Assembly: GCA_902514755.1 (NCBI GenBank)
Contig: CABXRY010000002.1
Location: 8,608 to 72,607 of the forward strand
DNA length: 64,000 nucleotides
Source: an uncultured Pelagibacteraceae bacterium
GTDB lineage: Bacteria; Pseudomonadota; Alphaproteobacteria; Pelagibacterales; Pelagibacteraceae
Direction: 5' to 3'
A program made the position numbers and the translations under genes. Position 1 is the first letter of the stretch, and each line of letters opens with the position of its first letter. The notes under the pieces were generated by a model. It was given only the letters and a program-made list of their open reading frames with translations. It was not told the origin of the DNA and did not search any database. This document shows, one piece after another, positions 56,400-64,000 of this stretch.

Positions 56400-57452
56400 A
56401 TGGCAAAAATTAAAATAAAAAGAGAAAGAGTTAAATTTGCATCAGATAATGTTGCAGGTGCTTGTCCAGAAGTATTAGATGCAATTATTAAAGCTAATGA
56501 AGGAGACAGCACTCCTTATGGAAATGATCAAATTTCAACTGAACTTCAAGATAAATTTTCTGAAATTTTTGAAAGAGAGGTTATAGTTTTTCCAACAGCT
56601 TCAGGAACGGCTGCTAATGCTTTAGCTTTATCAACAATGACACCATCATTTGGTAATATTTATTGTCATAAGATGTCCCATATAAACACTGATGAATGTG
56701 GTGCTCCAGAATTCTACACTGGTGGCGGAAAACTTGTTACTCTTCAGGGTGTTAAAGGAAAAATAACTGCTGAAGAACTAGATGAAGCGATTACTGGAAA
56801 AGGAATTGTACACCATACTCAACCCTCATCTGTTAGCATTACACAAGTTTGTGAAACAGGAGAAGTTTATCAATTAGATGAAATTAAAAAAATATCAGAT
56901 GTTGCTCATAATCATAATTTAAACATGCATATGGATGGTGCTAGATTTGCCAATGCATTAGTGTCACTTGATGTAACACCAGCTGAGATGACTTGGAAGT
57001 CAGGTATTGATGTATTATCATTTGGAGCAACCAAAAATGGTTGCTTAGCTGCAGAAGCTATAATTTTTTTTAAAAAAGATTTAGTAGGTAATGTTGCTTT
57101 TTTAATGAAAAGAGCAGGGCATTTATTATCTAAAATGCGTTTTGTCTCTGCTCAGTTAGATGCTTATATCTCAAATGATGTGTGGCTTAAAAATGCAAGA
57201 CATGCAAATAAAATGGGAAAAAAATTAAGTGAAGGATTAAATAATCATTCCGATATAAATCTATCTTATCCAACTGAAGCCAATGAGATTTTTGCTACAT
57301 TTCCTAGAAATAAAATTGATCATTTAAATTCTGAAGGTTATACAATTAATGAAGATGAATGGGATGGTAAAGCTGTAAGATTAGTTACTGCTTGGAATAC
57401 TAAAGATAATGATGTTGATGAATTTTTAAGTATACTTAATAAGACTAACTAG
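56400..57452 (+). CDS. ltaE: Low-specificity L-threonine aldolase
   Basis: FASDN, SGTAAN, HINTDECGAPEF, HMDGARFANA, SFGATKNG PLP lysine, SKMRF. Confidence 0.88.
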   Translation: MAKIKIKRERVKFASDNVAGACPEVLDAIIKANEGDSTPYGNDQISTELQDKFSEIFEREVIVFPTASGTAANALALSTMTPSFGNIYCHKMSHINTDECGAPEFYTGGGKLVTLQGVKGKITAEELDEAITGKGIVHHTQPSSVSITQVCETGEVYQLDEIKKISDVAHNHNLNMHMDGARFANALVSLDVTPAEMTWKSGIDVLSFGATKNGCLAAEAIIFFKKDLVGNVAFLMKRAGHLLSKMRFVSAQLDAYISNDVWLKNARHANKMGKKLSEGLNNHSDINLSYPTEANEIFATFPRNKIDHLNSEGYTINEDEWDGKAVRLVTAWNTKDNDVDEFLSILNKTN

Positions 57453-57672
57453 GGTTCTTTTTTAGATATTCAATATAATCTACCACATCATTAAATTTTT
57501 CATCAGGAATATCTTTGTAACTTGCATTAAAGTTATCTTTCACGCATATAGCAACATGAGCATAGGGGTTTCTTCCTTTGGGGTGATTTGGATGTTCTGG
57601 TAGTTGTCCCCCCAAATAATTGCCAGCTTCCTGAATAATTTTCCAGAGTTTACTTGCGTTATCTTTATTCAT
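57445..57672 (-). CDS. Small hypothetical protein; apparent integration target of the adjacent element
   Basis: 75-aa ORF (HPNHPKGRNPYAH); its first 20 codons recur at 63528-63588. Confidence 0.8.
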   Translation of the reverse strand: MNKDNASKLWKIIQEAGNYLGGQLPEHPNHPKGRNPYAHVAICVKDNFNASYKDIPDEKFNDVVDYIEYLKKNPS

Positions 57673-57685
57673 ACAACCTAAATTC

Positions 57686-57722
57686 TTGTTTTATCTAAAT
57701 CTGGCATAGTCTGTGGCATAGT
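57686..57722. repeat. 37-bp arm repeat, left copy (contains tandem TGGCATAGT with 12-bp period)
   Basis: ttgttttatctaaatctggcatagtctgtggcatagt; 33/37 identical to 63375-63411. Confidence 0.9.
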
Positions 57723-57839
57723 ATTTTTTAAAATCCTATTAATAATCACCAGACCATGTAAAGACATCTGTATCAAGTTTTATATTATTGAATTCAAGGT
57801 CTTGGCCTAAATGGTTACTTGATCTAGAATAGATTAAAA

Positions 57840-58562
57840 ATGACACTTAAAGTTAAAGGCACTAATGAGGGGTTTAAAACAGAGTCTTTAATTGAGGAAT
57901 ATCTTAATAATAAAAAGATTGTTGATCTTAAAACATCTAATCTAAAAAAATTTATTTATTTCATATGCATAGAAAATCATATTGAAATTAATAAAGAAAC
58001 TACAATTAAAGTTAAAAATTTTGATAAAAAAAATTTAAAAATAATAGGATTACCTAAAACTGATAAAGTATTTAAAATATCAAATAAAGAATTTAGAATT
58101 AGTATCAAAACAGGCAAAGGTGGTGCTTTTCATCAAGAGCCTGAAGAGACATTTATTAAGTTTTTAAAGGCCAAGACAAATATAGATGAAAATAAAATCT
58201 CATTTCTTAGTAAGTTTCTTAGAAGTGATGAAATTAAAATAAAAAATAGTAATCTTGCAAAATTCTTTGATAAGAATAGATCAATTCTGATTAATAGAGT
58301 TTTTTCTGGTAGATTTAACGAACCTGATGTTCATTATTATTTTTTTTGTCCTTTAATTAATAAATATGACACAAAGGAAATAAGAATAAAGAAAATTGAA
58401 AAAGGAAAATATATAAATAAAATTTCATTAATTGAGTTTATAAATAACAATAAATCTAACGGTGAATGTCCAGTCGGTCGCTTAACTTTTCAAGCTTATG
58501 GAAGATTAAGGGGCACAAGCGTTCAATTTAAGTGGGGTACGTGTTATAATGACATCAAATAG
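57840..58562 (+). CDS. Putative PD-(D/E)xK restriction endonuclease, MspI/HinP1I-like (1)
   Basis: GFKTE, PKTD, ISIK, KNRSILINRVFSGR, GRLTFQ...VQFKW parallel recalled HinP1I motifs; convergent with the C5 methyltransferases. Confidence 0.65.
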   Translation: MTLKVKGTNEGFKTESLIEEYLNNKKIVDLKTSNLKKFIYFICIENHIEINKETTIKVKNFDKKNLKIIGLPKTDKVFKISNKEFRISIKTGKGGAFHQEPEETFIKFLKAKTNIDENKISFLSKFLRSDEIKIKNSNLAKFFDKNRSILINRVFSGRFNEPDVHYYFFCPLINKYDTKEIRIKKIEKGKYINKISLIEFINNNKSNGECPVGRLTFQAYGRLRGTSVQFKWGTCYNDIK

Positions 58563-59331
58563 AGCCTTAGATGGTTTTAAAAATGAAGATGAATTTGTAA
58601 TAAAACTTAATTCAAATAAAGAACATCCATTTTGGAAAACAATTAATTTAACGGATAATAAAAAAATATATTTTGTAAGAGTAGTAGGAAGCAAACTTTC
58701 AAAACTTACTAATAAAAAAATACCATGTAAAGCAGATGTTTTTGTAAGTGAAATTGATTTAGATATAAATGAATTAAAGAGTAATAAATATCTTATTAAA
58801 GAAAATCAAAAATTAAAATTTATCAATAAATTACCTCAAACTGGTATCTCTATAAAAATGAATAAAACTAATTATCAAATTGATAAGTGTTCTATGGATA
58901 AATTTGTGAAACGTTTTGATGATAAATATTTATTTGTTGGTGCTACAACCTACAACAAAAACATAAATGAATTAAAATATAATCATACTGTTTTAGAGCG
59001 CACAGAAACAACATGGAAAGAGTTTGGAAATTATTTTAAAAGTGAGATTTTAAAAAAAGTAAACATAGATACCGATTTTAATGAAGAACACGCAAATATT
59101 TTGCAAAAAATTAAAACAGAATCAAATAAAAAAATAAAATCCATGGCATTAGATAGTCCAAAAATATTAGACTCTTTATATAAAGGCTCAGATGAATTTA
59201 ATGATCCTTATTGTGCAACGTGGTTATTAATAGATAACAAACTAACTAAAGAAATACCAAAAGATTTAAAAGTAACAAAAGGAAGTAGTAATAAAGGACG
59301 GAATCCTCAGGTTGAGTTTAAACCTGCTTAA
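58549..59331 (+). CDS. Putative PD-(D/E)xK restriction endonuclease, MspI/HinP1I-like (2)
   Basis: ALDGFKNE, KADV, ISIK, YQIDK, QVEFK (HinP1I as recalled: AKDGFKNE, KSD, QVK, NQIDK, LQFK). Confidence 0.65.
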   Translation: MTSNRALDGFKNEDEFVIKLNSNKEHPFWKTINLTDNKKIYFVRVVGSKLSKLTNKKIPCKADVFVSEIDLDINELKSNKYLIKENQKLKFINKLPQTGISIKMNKTNYQIDKCSMDKFVKRFDDKYLFVGATTYNKNINELKYNHTVLERTETTWKEFGNYFKSEILKKVNIDTDFNEEHANILQKIKTESNKKIKSMALDSPKILDSLYKGSDEFNDPYCATWLLIDNKLTKEIPKDLKVTKGSSNKGRNPQVEFKPA

Positions 59332-60298
59332 TTTTTTTTTTTATTTGTTGAACTAAGGAGTTAATTACGGGCACACTAACAGAATTCCCAATTTGTTTTA
59401 AAGCTTCAGTATAATTATTTGTAAGTTTAAAACTTTTAGGAAATCCTTGGATTAAAAGACATTCTTCTAAAGTATAAAATCTATTTTGATTCACTAGATA
59501 AGGAACATTATTTCCACCTGTTCCCATTTTAGTAGTCAAACAAGGACTTATGTTGTCAAATCTAAAATGACATCTAGATTTTCTAACTTCATTAGCAACT
59601 AGATAATTAAGATTTTTTATTTTATTGTAACTTTGGTGTTTTCTTAAGTGTTTATTTATATAACCTTTGGATAATTTTGAAATTCTTCTAATTTTTTTTG
59701 GTTTAATTTTAATGATATCGTTCAACGTTTTTTTAAGCTTCTGATTTGTAGGAAATTTGAAATTAATGCTTTGATCTCTAAAACCAATTATAAATACTCT
59801 TTCCCTATTTTGAGGTACATTAAAATTAGTTGAGTTTAAAATTTTCCAAAAGACATTATATCCTAAATTTTCTCTTCTTGATTTAATTATTTTACCATTT
59901 AATTTTTTTGATAAAATTTCTAAAATTTTTTTAAAAGTTTCCCCTTTATCGTGATTAACCAAACCTTTTACATTTTCTAAAATAAAAATTTTCGGTTTTT
60001 TTTCCTTTAAAATTCTAACAATATCAAAGAATAAAGTTCCTCTTGTATCATCAAAACCTCTTCTCTTTCCCGCAATACTAAACGGTTGGCATGGAAATCC
60101 AGCACAAAGAATATCATGATTTGGTATTTTTTTTGGAGATAGTTTTTTTATATCTACAAGTGGATATTCTTTAAAATTTTTATAATAAGTCTCACATGCA
60201 TATTGGTTATTATCCGCACTAAATACACATTTATAGTTAAATTTTTCAAATGCTAATCTAAACCCACCTATACCAGAGAATAAATCTATAAATTTCAA
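59318..60298 (-). CDS. DNA (cytosine-5) methyltransferase, classical RM type
   Basis: DLFSGIGG, GFPCQPFS, ENVKGL, PQNRERVF, KQIGNSVSV; TTG start overlapping the upstream stop. Confidence 0.95.
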   Translation of the reverse strand: MKFIDLFSGIGGFRLAFEKFNYKCVFSADNNQYACETYYKNFKEYPLVDIKKLSPKKIPNHDILCAGFPCQPFSIAGKRRGFDDTRGTLFFDIVRILKEKKPKIFILENVKGLVNHDKGETFKKILEILSKKLNGKIIKSRRENLGYNVFWKILNSTNFNVPQNRERVFIIGFRDQSINFKFPTNQKLKKTLNDIIKIKPKKIRRISKLSKGYINKHLRKHQSYNKIKNLNYLVANEVRKSRCHFRFDNISPCLTTKMGTGGNNVPYLVNQNRFYTLEECLLIQGFPKSFKLTNNYTEALKQIGNSVSVPVINSLVQQIKKKIKQV

Positions 60299-61227
60299 TT
60301 GAATAATTCTAACTGTTTTTTAATGTTTGTTTTTTTTCCAATAAAACTAATTATATATTTAATTACTTGAACGGTAAAACCATTCCCTATCATTTTATAT
60401 CTTGTTGTATTGCTAAAATCAGCTGTATAATTATCTGGCAAACCTTGAAGCCTTTCACATTCTAAAGGTGTTAATTTTCTTATTTTGTTATTTATGTATA
60501 TTTTGGGTGTATCAGATCTAGCTAATAATGTAGGAGACTTTCCTCTAATATCATATACTCTTCTCTGTCTTTCGTTATCTTTTAGTAATTCTCTGGGAAT
60601 TAAGTAAATCTTATTTATTCCATGTTTTAATTTATTAGAATTTTTTAATTTTTTTATTTTATTTGGATTTAAATCAAAAAAAAATTTCTCATCAGGTTTT
60701 TTTTCTAAATAGTCTTTAATATTTCTATTGTACTTATCTAAATTTACATTTTCAAAATCTATATTTGACCAATATACTCTTGGCCTATATTGACCTGAAA
60801 AATACATTGAATTTAATTCAATTCCCTTAACACCAATTTCTCTATCCATTAAATTAGACCATTTATTCTTAACATTTTCTAGAAGAAAATATTTTGGCTT
60901 TAATTTTTTCTTTATCTTAACAAACTGAAAAAATAAGGAAGATCTAACTCCTTTAATACCATCACCTCTGTAAGCATTACTTAAATCCTGACAAGGGCTT
61001 CCACCAATAAGTAAATCAATTCTAGGAAGTTTATTTAAATTTATATTTTCAACAGAACCCAAATTTATGTCTTTTGGGTATTTCTTACTAAGTAATCTTA
61101 AGCAATTTTTATCTATTTCAGAGTAAAAATATCTATTAATTTCGATATTTTTACTTTTTTTTAATGCTAATTTTGCACAACCTATACCATCAAATAAGCT
61201 TAAAACATTTAATTTTATTTTTTTCAT
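60295..61227 (-). CDS. DNA (cytosine-5) methyltransferase of a second, distinct subtype
   Basis: SLFDGIG, SEID, GGSPCQDLS, LENV, QYRPRVYWSNI, RKLTPLECERLQG, KMIGNG. Confidence 0.93.
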   Translation of the reverse strand: MKKIKLNVLSLFDGIGCAKLALKKSKNIEINRYFYSEIDKNCLRLLSKKYPKDINLGSVENINLNKLPRIDLLIGGSPCQDLSNAYRGDGIKGVRSSLFFQFVKIKKKLKPKYFLLENVKNKWSNLMDREIGVKGIELNSMYFSGQYRPRVYWSNIDFENVNLDKYNRNIKDYLEKKPDEKFFFDLNPNKIKKLKNSNKLKHGINKIYLIPRELLKDNERQRRVYDIRGKSPTLLARSDTPKIYINNKIRKLTPLECERLQGLPDNYTADFSNTTRYKMIGNGFTVQVIKYIISFIGKKTNIKKQLELFN

Positions 61228-61257
61228 TTTGAGTCTATATAATATATATCAGAAACA

Positions 61258-61716
61258 ATGCGAGATTTCATTGAGTCAAACTATCTTATTTTTATTTCTT
61301 CAGATGGAAGAAGAGAGGGTTATGAAATTTTTAAAGAAAGAATTAATAATAATTTATGGCCAATATACAAAAAAACTCCACAATTAATTAATATTGAAAA
61401 AGATAAAAAAATTCTTTTTTATATAGCTGGCACAAATACATTATGTCAAAATTTTGTGGCAAGCACTTCTATAAAAGAAATAATTGATTTAAAATCTACT
61501 TCATCTGATCCAAATCAAGAATTTAGGCAAGTTTTATTTAATGTTAGATTTAATGAAATTAATTATTTTCAAAAACCAGTAAATATTAAAAATCATATAA
61601 ACAACCTGAGTTTCATTGAAGAAGAAAAAAGAAAGTATTATGGCCTTTATTTGCAAGGTGGTGTTTGTAAAATTAATGAACAAACATATGAATATATAAT
61701 AAACAAATCCTCATAA
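61258..61716 (+). CDS. Stand-alone EVE (PUA-like) domain protein
   Basis: WPIYKKTPQLINIEKDKKILFYIAG...FVAS...KPVNIK...LSFI...YGLYLQGGVCKINEQTYEYI matches the EVE/UPF0310 pattern as I recall it. Confidence 0.7.
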   Translation: MRDFIESNYLIFISSDGRREGYEIFKERINNNLWPIYKKTPQLINIEKDKKILFYIAGTNTLCQNFVASTSIKEIIDLKSTSSDPNQEFRQVLFNVRFNEINYFQKPVNIKNHINNLSFIEEEKRKYYGLYLQGGVCKINEQTYEYIINKSS

Positions 61717-61807
61717 GTTAAAAATTATTTGTTGAGATATTAATATCAACATAATTAAAACAATTTTGTAGCAAATTTTAAACAAACACATTTGATTTAT
61801 TAGAAAA

Positions 61808-62098
61808 ATGAAAAACCCAGAGATTGTTGAGATTTCAAACAAAATGTCTCCAGACATAAAATTTTCATCAGATTCAGTAAGATTGTTAGCTCCAAAATTA
61901 CTAAATTACGCGGAAAATAAGAGAGATTTTCTTTTATTATTTGAATTATCTAAGTTTCAAGCAACAAGAAATCAGATTGTATCAATTATTAAAAAAGACA
62001 CTAATATTCATAAAAAATTAAAAGAACTAATCAAAAGAAAAACAAATAAATCAATTATCAAAAAAATTAAAGATTTAGAAGAAAGAATAAATGGTTAA
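61808..62098 (+). CDS. Hypothetical protein
   Basis: 96-aa basic ORF that overlaps the next gene. Confidence 0.55.
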   Translation: MKNPEIVEISNKMSPDIKFSSDSVRLLAPKLLNYAENKRDFLLLFELSKFQATRNQIVSIIKKDTNIHKKLKELIKRKTNKSIIKKIKDLEERING

Positions 62099-63988: not shown

Positions 63989-64000
63989 TAAGATTTAAAA

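Follow-up and report, generated by a model that had tools for sequence, protein, structure and literature searches.

A probable two-subunit Type II restriction-modification system of AciI-like architecture on a transferable cassette of a Pelagibacteraceae genome

The restriction endonuclease AciI is a single polypeptide chain with two distinct catalytic domains, which is accompanied by the composite methyltransferase M1~M2.AciI and a controller protein (PMC4081073, a 2014 review of the Type II enzymes), and its sites, CCGC/GCGG, carry 5-methylcytosine (m5C) on both strands (PMC8112702). HhaI, HinP1I and MspI form one structural group of monomeric enzymes that cut one strand at a time and have active sites of the PD-(D/E)XK type, which in HhaI takes the variant form SD-X11-EAK; HinP1I and MspI act singly on palindromes (PMC7026639). 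Here we describe a locus in the genome of an uncultured Pelagibacteraceae bacterium (GCA_902514755.1), analysed within a stretch of 64,000 nucleotides (contig CABXRY010000002.1, positions 8,608 to 72,607; hereafter the window), in which two putative nuclease subunits, R1 and R2, and two C5 cytosine DNA methyltransferases, M1 and M2, are encoded between positions 57840 and 61227 (Table 1). With a probability of roughly 0.8 these four genes constitute one Type II restriction-modification (RM) system of subtype IIT, with two different nuclease subunits and CCGC/GCGG as the most likely site.

How are the two nucleases related to each other in function? A single PADLOC model for Type II restriction endonucleases, the REBASE-derived PDLC03402 (REase_II, 527 positions), is covered by R1 in its N-terminal half (positions 4-147, E-value 9.7e-14) and by R2 in its C-terminal half (positions 269-526, E-value 8.4e-16). 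An exhaustive HMMER search with an R2 profile recovered 173 relatives of three architectures, the R2-like sequence standing alone (~255-265 aa) or forming the C-terminal half of proteins of ~500-540 aa or the C-terminal third of proteins of ~780 aa. The N-terminal halves of the longer relatives match the R1 profile (1e-9 to 1e-20). R1, which aligns with the N-halves of the fused relatives of ~520 aa, is the counterpart of their N-terminal domain (N) and R2 that of their C-terminal domain (C), and the ~780-aa forms consist of two R1-like modules followed by an R2-like one. Species-representative genomes were then scanned, and every open reading frame (ORF) in the 79 loci returned was domain-mapped; the loci include members of the Bacillota, Bacteroidota, Campylobacterota, Spirochaetota and Saccharibacteria, Methanobrevibacter, DPANN archaea and others. 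N and C are split, as in the window, and accompanied by two separate methyltransferases in 31 loci. Fused N~C proteins are found with two separate methyltransferases in 15 loci, with one fused double methyltransferase in four and with no methyltransferase nearby in six, whereas the arrangements N + N~C and N~N~C, each with two separate methyltransferases, account for four and three loci, respectively; the other 16 loci combine these modules in twelve further, less frequent ways. Altogether N and C are fused in about 30 of the 79 loci, always in N-then-C order, two C5 methyltransferases, separate or fused, accompany them nearly always, fused double methyltransferases of ~670-706 aa adjoin some relatives, and one nuclease type without the other was not encountered in any of the 79 loci except at contig ends. 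Since the R1 and R2 types always occur together and are often fused, the data argue for one two-subunit (Type IIT) system and not for two nested ones. This family is widespread, lies outside the coverage of Pfam and NCBIfam and most often takes the split four-gene layout.

An earlier note on this DNA, made from its letters and ORFs, had offered both readings, a four-gene system in which each nuclease would act on one strand of an asymmetric C-rich site, or two nested RM systems. In independent nested systems R1 and R2, as monomers like HinP1I or MspI, would each cut a palindrome and each be paired with a C5 methyltransferase of its own. The presence of two nucleases and two methyltransferases, the lack of detectable similarity between R1 and R2 and the fact that HinP1I and MspI themselves work alone would be compatible with nested systems. 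However, domains that never come apart in the survey, nucleases joined in one order, methyltransferases that are themselves fused in some loci and a REBASE-derived model that spans both nucleases make nested systems highly improbable; the same co-occurrence and fusion of the nuclease types, with two C5 methyltransferases alongside, that support the four-gene system effectively exclude them.

The survey also revealed loci with additional modules (L numbers denote individual loci). The three-module form N~N~C, encoded as one chain of ~780 aa, was seen in L029 (6007-8373), L030 (2979-5357), L040, L041, L043 and L047, an extra R1-like ORF precedes a fused N~C protein in L007, L011, L025 and L082, and a third C5 methyltransferase lies near some of the three-module versions. 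In L021, an Erysipelotrichaceae contig, the fused enzyme is present in tandem copies (71-1147 and 1248-2849), the first of which has a truncated N-domain.

R1 contains the motifs GFKTE (residues 11-15), KTD (73-75), ISIK (87-90) and QFK (229-231), and R2 the motifs GFKNE (9-13), KAD (61-63), ISIK (100-103) and EFK (256-258), just as the earlier note had listed them. These matches are not due to chance, since in deep alignments of the two families, in which identity drops to 20-30%, their residues vary little or not at all, namely G11, E15, K73, D75, S88, K90, Q229 and K231 in R1, and E13, D63, S101, K103 and K258 in R2; the first four of the latter are the same in all 67 R2-family sequences aligned. 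More precisely, the putative active site of R1 comprises E15 in helix 1 and the element D75-X12-S88-I-K90, with Q229-F-K231 at the C-terminal end, and that of R2 comprises E13, also in helix 1, and D63-X37-S101-I-K103, with the C-terminal K258. In AlphaFold2 models based on deeper alignments, with predicted local distance difference test (pLDDT) scores of 91.6 for R1 and 95.2 for R2, the residues E15/D75/S88-x-K90/K231 of R1 and E13/D63/S101-x-K103/K258 of R2 are found in equivalent secondary-structure elements and in the same order, with the acid in helix 1, the aspartate at the start of a strand, SxK within a strand and the lysine in the last strand. Sequence and models thus suggest one active site per protein, a variant of PD-(D/E)XK with the form D-spacer-(Q/N/S/E)-x-K. 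Directly compared, R1 and R2 show no significant similarity by BLAST and a marginal one by hhalign (best E-value 2.6e-5 in global mode at 49% probability, 0.0013 in local mode), and the motifs they have in common can thus be a sign of only a very remote kinship, if of any.

R1 is predicted to have the fold of HinP1I and MspI over its full length. A Foldseek search of the PDB with the R1 model returned HinP1I as 2fkc_A (E-value 2.9e-9, template modelling (TM) scores 0.62/0.60) and as 1ynm (E-value 1.1e-7) and MspI as 1sa3_A (E-value 5.6e-7, TM scores 0.59/0.55), and the best match beyond these two enzymes appeared only at an E-value of 0.1. R2 is a probable diverged member of the HhaI/HinP1I/MspI group, as judged from its motifs, from the placement of its conserved residues and from three weak leads: two of the 67 R2-family members match Endonuc-MspI (PF09208) with an E-value of 0.0024, the protein-atlas look-alikes of an R2 homologue, 71% identical to the R2 of the window, include clusters with R-HINP1I (PF11463) or Endonuc-MspI, and the R2 profile has the marginal hhalign match to the R1 domain given above. 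In Pfam and NCBIfam scans neither R1 nor R2 has a match, PF11463 and PF09208 being absent for both at E-values up to 1, and none of 37 R1-family or fused proteins matches either of these two models in a Pfam scan.

M1 and M2 are complete, intact C5 cytosine methyltransferases, which match PF00145 with E-values of 3.6e-93 and 3.8e-46, respectively, and also TIGR00675. Both match a single double-methyltransferase model of PADLOC, PDLC03217 (703 positions), M1 in the C-terminal half (positions 386-701) and M2 in the region of the N-terminal half. Relatives of M1 were found at E-values of 1e-90 to 1e-120 in 70+ loci, and practically all loci of the family have retained a methyltransferase of the M1 type. 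At the position of M2 at least two or three types of partner methyltransferase are found across the loci, and partners of the M2 type proper (~1e-95) occur only in some of them (L028, L060, L065, L070, L073 and L078).

The ORF map and the PF00145 matches agree with the arrangement originally described, in which two overlapping plus-strand ORFs converge tail-to-tail on two coupled C5 methyltransferase genes. R1 and R2 overlap by 14 nt, the 3' ends of R2 and M1 overlap tail-to-tail by another 14 nt, and M1 and M2 are translationally coupled via an overlap of 4 nt. A terminator scan of positions 57400-61900 yielded one terminator-like site where 0.9 would be expected by chance; it coincides with the convergent R2/M1 junction, and by this position alone the hairpin is suggestive. 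In a promoter scan the number of sites was no higher than expected by chance.

Which sequence might such a system recognize? CCGC was picked as candidate from the description of AciI before word usage was analysed, and usage was expressed as observed over expected counts (O/E) under a maximal-order Markov model for the 136 classes of four-letter words in the two carrier genomes, that is the window genome and the genome G287, and in five non-carriers of the same genus. For CCGC/GCGG the log2 O/E amounts to 0.09 in one carrier and 0.03 in the other, compared with 0.29-0.39 (sd 0.04) in the five non-carriers, and the resulting shift of -0.27 is the largest of all 136 classes, the next word following at -0.12. 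Seven of the eight one-base extensions of CCGC are depleted, so that the depletion belongs to the 4-mer and is not explained by any longer word containing CCGC. Nor does closer kinship set the two carriers apart from the controls, G287 being 77.2% identical to the window genome and the controls 76.4-77.8%. As evidence for the site the depletion is suggestive, not conclusive, and we give CCGC/GCGG, the specificity of AciI, somewhat better than an even chance of being the recognition sequence.

Within the cassette itself CCGC occurs at two sites, 60070 and 60214, both inside M1, and GCGG is absent from the plus strand; at 24% GC this count is not clearly below expectation.

How would two different subunits cut such a site? 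HinP1I and MspI, as monomers, contact their 4-bp sites asymmetrically and nick just one of the two strands. If the site is not a palindrome, one such monomer can bind in a single orientation only, and for this reason two diverged monomers are needed, one for each strand. The double-strand cut would then result from two nicks, one made by R1 and one, on the opposite strand, by R2, and the host would be protected by M1 and M2, which would place m5C in this site, each on a strand of its own. We infer in this scheme that R2 is catalytic, that the subunits associate, that each is responsible for one strand and that the recognition sequence is the one given above.

Several results weigh against this interpretation. 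With respect to the nucleases, searches of the PDB with the sequences of R1 and R2 and with the profiles of their families found neither HinP1I or MspI nor any other chain, and the R2 model, though confident, has no Foldseek match in the PDB or BFVD, for which reason the fold of R2 had to be derived from motifs and weak leads. The resemblance to HinP1I and MspI proposed in the earlier note thus holds for R1, by Foldseek with a predicted structure, but for R2 it comes down to the motif pattern and these leads. R2 might accordingly be seen not as a nuclease but as a specificity or activator subunit, with R1 as the one that cuts, for instance as a dimer or by binding a second time, and both a model unlike any known nuclease structure and the marginal similarity to R1 would suit such a role. 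Residues E13, D63, S101 and K103 of R2 are, however, invariant and placed as E15, D75, S88 and K90 of R1, and the weak Endonuc-MspI matches of two family members and the atlas look-alikes with R-HINP1I and Endonuc-MspI also point to a nuclease, which renders a non-catalytic R2 improbable.

With respect to the site, the depletion of CCGC is of modest size, its z being about -3.1 once sampling error is included, and only two hosts contribute to it; when genomes are paired arbitrarily, one or another CG-rich word of low count likewise shifts by -0.2 to -0.4. A Macrococcus genome with the fused form shows no signal, CCGC taking rank 31 of 136 in a small comparison of 280 kb with 120 kb and a single control. 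The closest solved structure to M1 is M.HhaI (E-value 2.4e-60), and since the target recognition domain of M1 aligns poorly with that of M.HhaI (R240 is kept, Q237 is not), M.HhaI gives no information on the specificity of M1. In addition, given the varied types of partner methyltransferase, the family may lack one common specificity, and the cassette, which is AciI-like, was compared with AciI by architecture and published description. The same two-subunit mechanism might thus act on an asymmetric site other than CCGC. The modest avoidance in two hosts, its lack in Macrococcus, the changing partner methyltransferases and a likeness to AciI that is one of architecture would all allow for this, but CCGC, specified beforehand, came first of 136 words, and no longer word containing it accounts for the depletion, so that we consider another site a reasonable but rather doubtful option. 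Taken with these reservations, we prefer the two-subunit system with CCGC/GCGG as its site.

Of 301 genomes of the family, only two carry R1 and R2. Between the window and G287, the second carrier, the sole nucleotide homology is a block with 79% identity (L005 9928-6022 in G287) between unrelated flanks. Because this homology spans exactly the 3.9 kb listed as cassette in Table 1, the cassette appears to be the transferable unit. All five cassette genes are under purifying selection, the ratios of nonsynonymous to synonymous substitution rates (dN/dS) between the two copies ranging from 0.10 to 0.31 (R1 0.31, R2 0.21, M1 0.10, M2 0.10, EVE-like gene 0.12). Synteny with three cassette-free congeners (G213, G277 and G312) stops at ~57700, just past a 75-aa ORF (57445-57672), and from there to the end of the window at 64000 nothing matches the next 10 kb of these three genomes. 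Since synteny ends before the cassette and does not resume downstream of it, the cassette lies at one border of a more extensive variable region with small, unassigned ORFs.

The fifth gene of the cassette diverges from M2 across a 30-bp spacer and encodes a stand-alone protein that matches nearly the full EVE model PF01878, with an E-value of 3.1e-4 and a score of 21.2 bits, which is below the cutoff of 23 bits, and PRK00809 of NCBIfam (E-value 1.3e-6). The gene is inside the 79%-identical block (L005 6029-6493 in G287). Among the cassette copies in marine metagenomes it adjoins M2 in L237 (3560-4024) and L241 (3532-3996), lies divergently upstream of R1 in L244 (1077-1529) and L245 (1-292) and is missing from L236 and L249, and it was not found adjoining the 79 relatives in other phyla. 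The EVE-like gene is therefore a recurrent but dispensable partner of the cassette and stands outside the core four-gene system. The EVE-like protein might read the m5C mark of M1 and M2 and replace a controller, sensing methylation and timing the expression of the nuclease; alternatively, it might add a modification-dependent discrimination. That it is a working fifth component and, as a separate matter, that each lone subunit is a natural strand-specific nickase of a 4-bp site we regard as unlikely.

Table 1. Features of the locus (positions in the window)
Feature	Position	Strand	Remarks
R1 nuclease subunit	57840-58562	+	240 aa
R2 second nuclease subunit	58549-59331	+	260 aa
M1 C5 cytosine DNA methyltransferase	59318-60298	-	326 aa, TTG start
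M2 second C5 cytosine DNA methyltransferase	60295-61227	-	310 aa
EVE-like (PUA-like) stand-alone protein	61258-61716	+	152 aa
Transferable five-gene 3.9-kb cassette	57838-61728	no strand	homology block common to second carrier G287
Terminator-like hairpin, convergent R2/M1 junction	59308-59326	+	terminator scan

Fragments of R1 were also seen in four metagenomic proteins (P0023, P0024, P0025 and P0041), in which residues 1-76, 1-56, 56-114 and 182-240 are in frame with unrelated genes, the partners being the C-terminus of an EVE protein, ribosomal protein S9, a P-loop kinase together with a sugar dehydratase, and a SurA-like protein. Such fusions resemble the scars that deletions would leave where a cassette has decayed elsewhere in a genome.

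The locus represents a functional-looking two-subunit Type IIT system in a streamlined genome of the SAR11 type, where such systems are rare, and since its two subunits are separate by nature, strand-specific nickases for a 4-bp site might be obtained from them with no engineering. A survey of EVE proteins (PMC7641849) associates the stand-alone ones with Type I and helicase-nuclease systems and reports none with Type II C5-methyltransferase systems; the EVE-like gene that recurs here has a setting that this survey does not describe. The current understanding of restriction enzymes is not changed by this locus.

How does the locus compare with the known systems? The heterodimeric Type IIT enzymes BbvCI and Bpu10I likewise have two subunits, one for each strand, and two strand-specific methyltransferases, and knocking out one of their subunits yields nicking enzymes. 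In contrast to the subunits of the window, which would be modules of the HinP1I/MspI type and are fused in many relatives, they belong to another protein family and recognize 7-bp sites. Membership in the Bpu10I/BbvCI family was therefore rejected, as the predicted fold of R1 is of the HinP1I/MspI type; the comparison with Bpu10I drawn in the earlier note is apt as a functional analogy but not as a relationship, AciI being closest by architecture.

With HinP1I (G^CGC; 2FKC, 1YNM) and MspI (C^CGG; 1SA3) the locus has in common the predicted full-length fold of R1 (TM scores about 0.6), the pattern of a helix-1 acid, an aspartate, (S/Q/N)-x-K and a C-terminal x-K in both R1 and R2, and one active site per module, presumably cutting one strand at a time. 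Unlike these enzymes, R1 and R2 have no significant sequence similarity to the corresponding Pfam models or PDB sequences and form an obligate pair of diverged modules for a presumably non-palindromic site, and R2 differs furthermore by a large helical insert, by the 37 residues that separate D from SxK and by the lack of a structural match.

The greatest likeness is to AciI of Arthrobacter citreus. No Arthrobacter locus is among the 79 returned, and no controller gene is found in the cassette, the neighbouring small ORFs being without family match in Pfam and NCBIfam. The locus differs from AciI in that both nuclease and methyltransferase are split into separate overlapping genes and in that an EVE-like gene is present instead of a controller such as C.AciI. 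In common with AciI are two different catalytic nuclease modules, an asymmetric site as proposed here and two m5C methyltransferase modules. Moreover, the fused relatives of R1 plus R2 and of M2 plus M1 reproduce the published architecture of AciI, and of all words CCGC, the site of AciI, shows the strongest depletion in the carriers. The window thus holds a further case, real and not new, of an AciI-like enzyme type that is already catalogued as a single chain.

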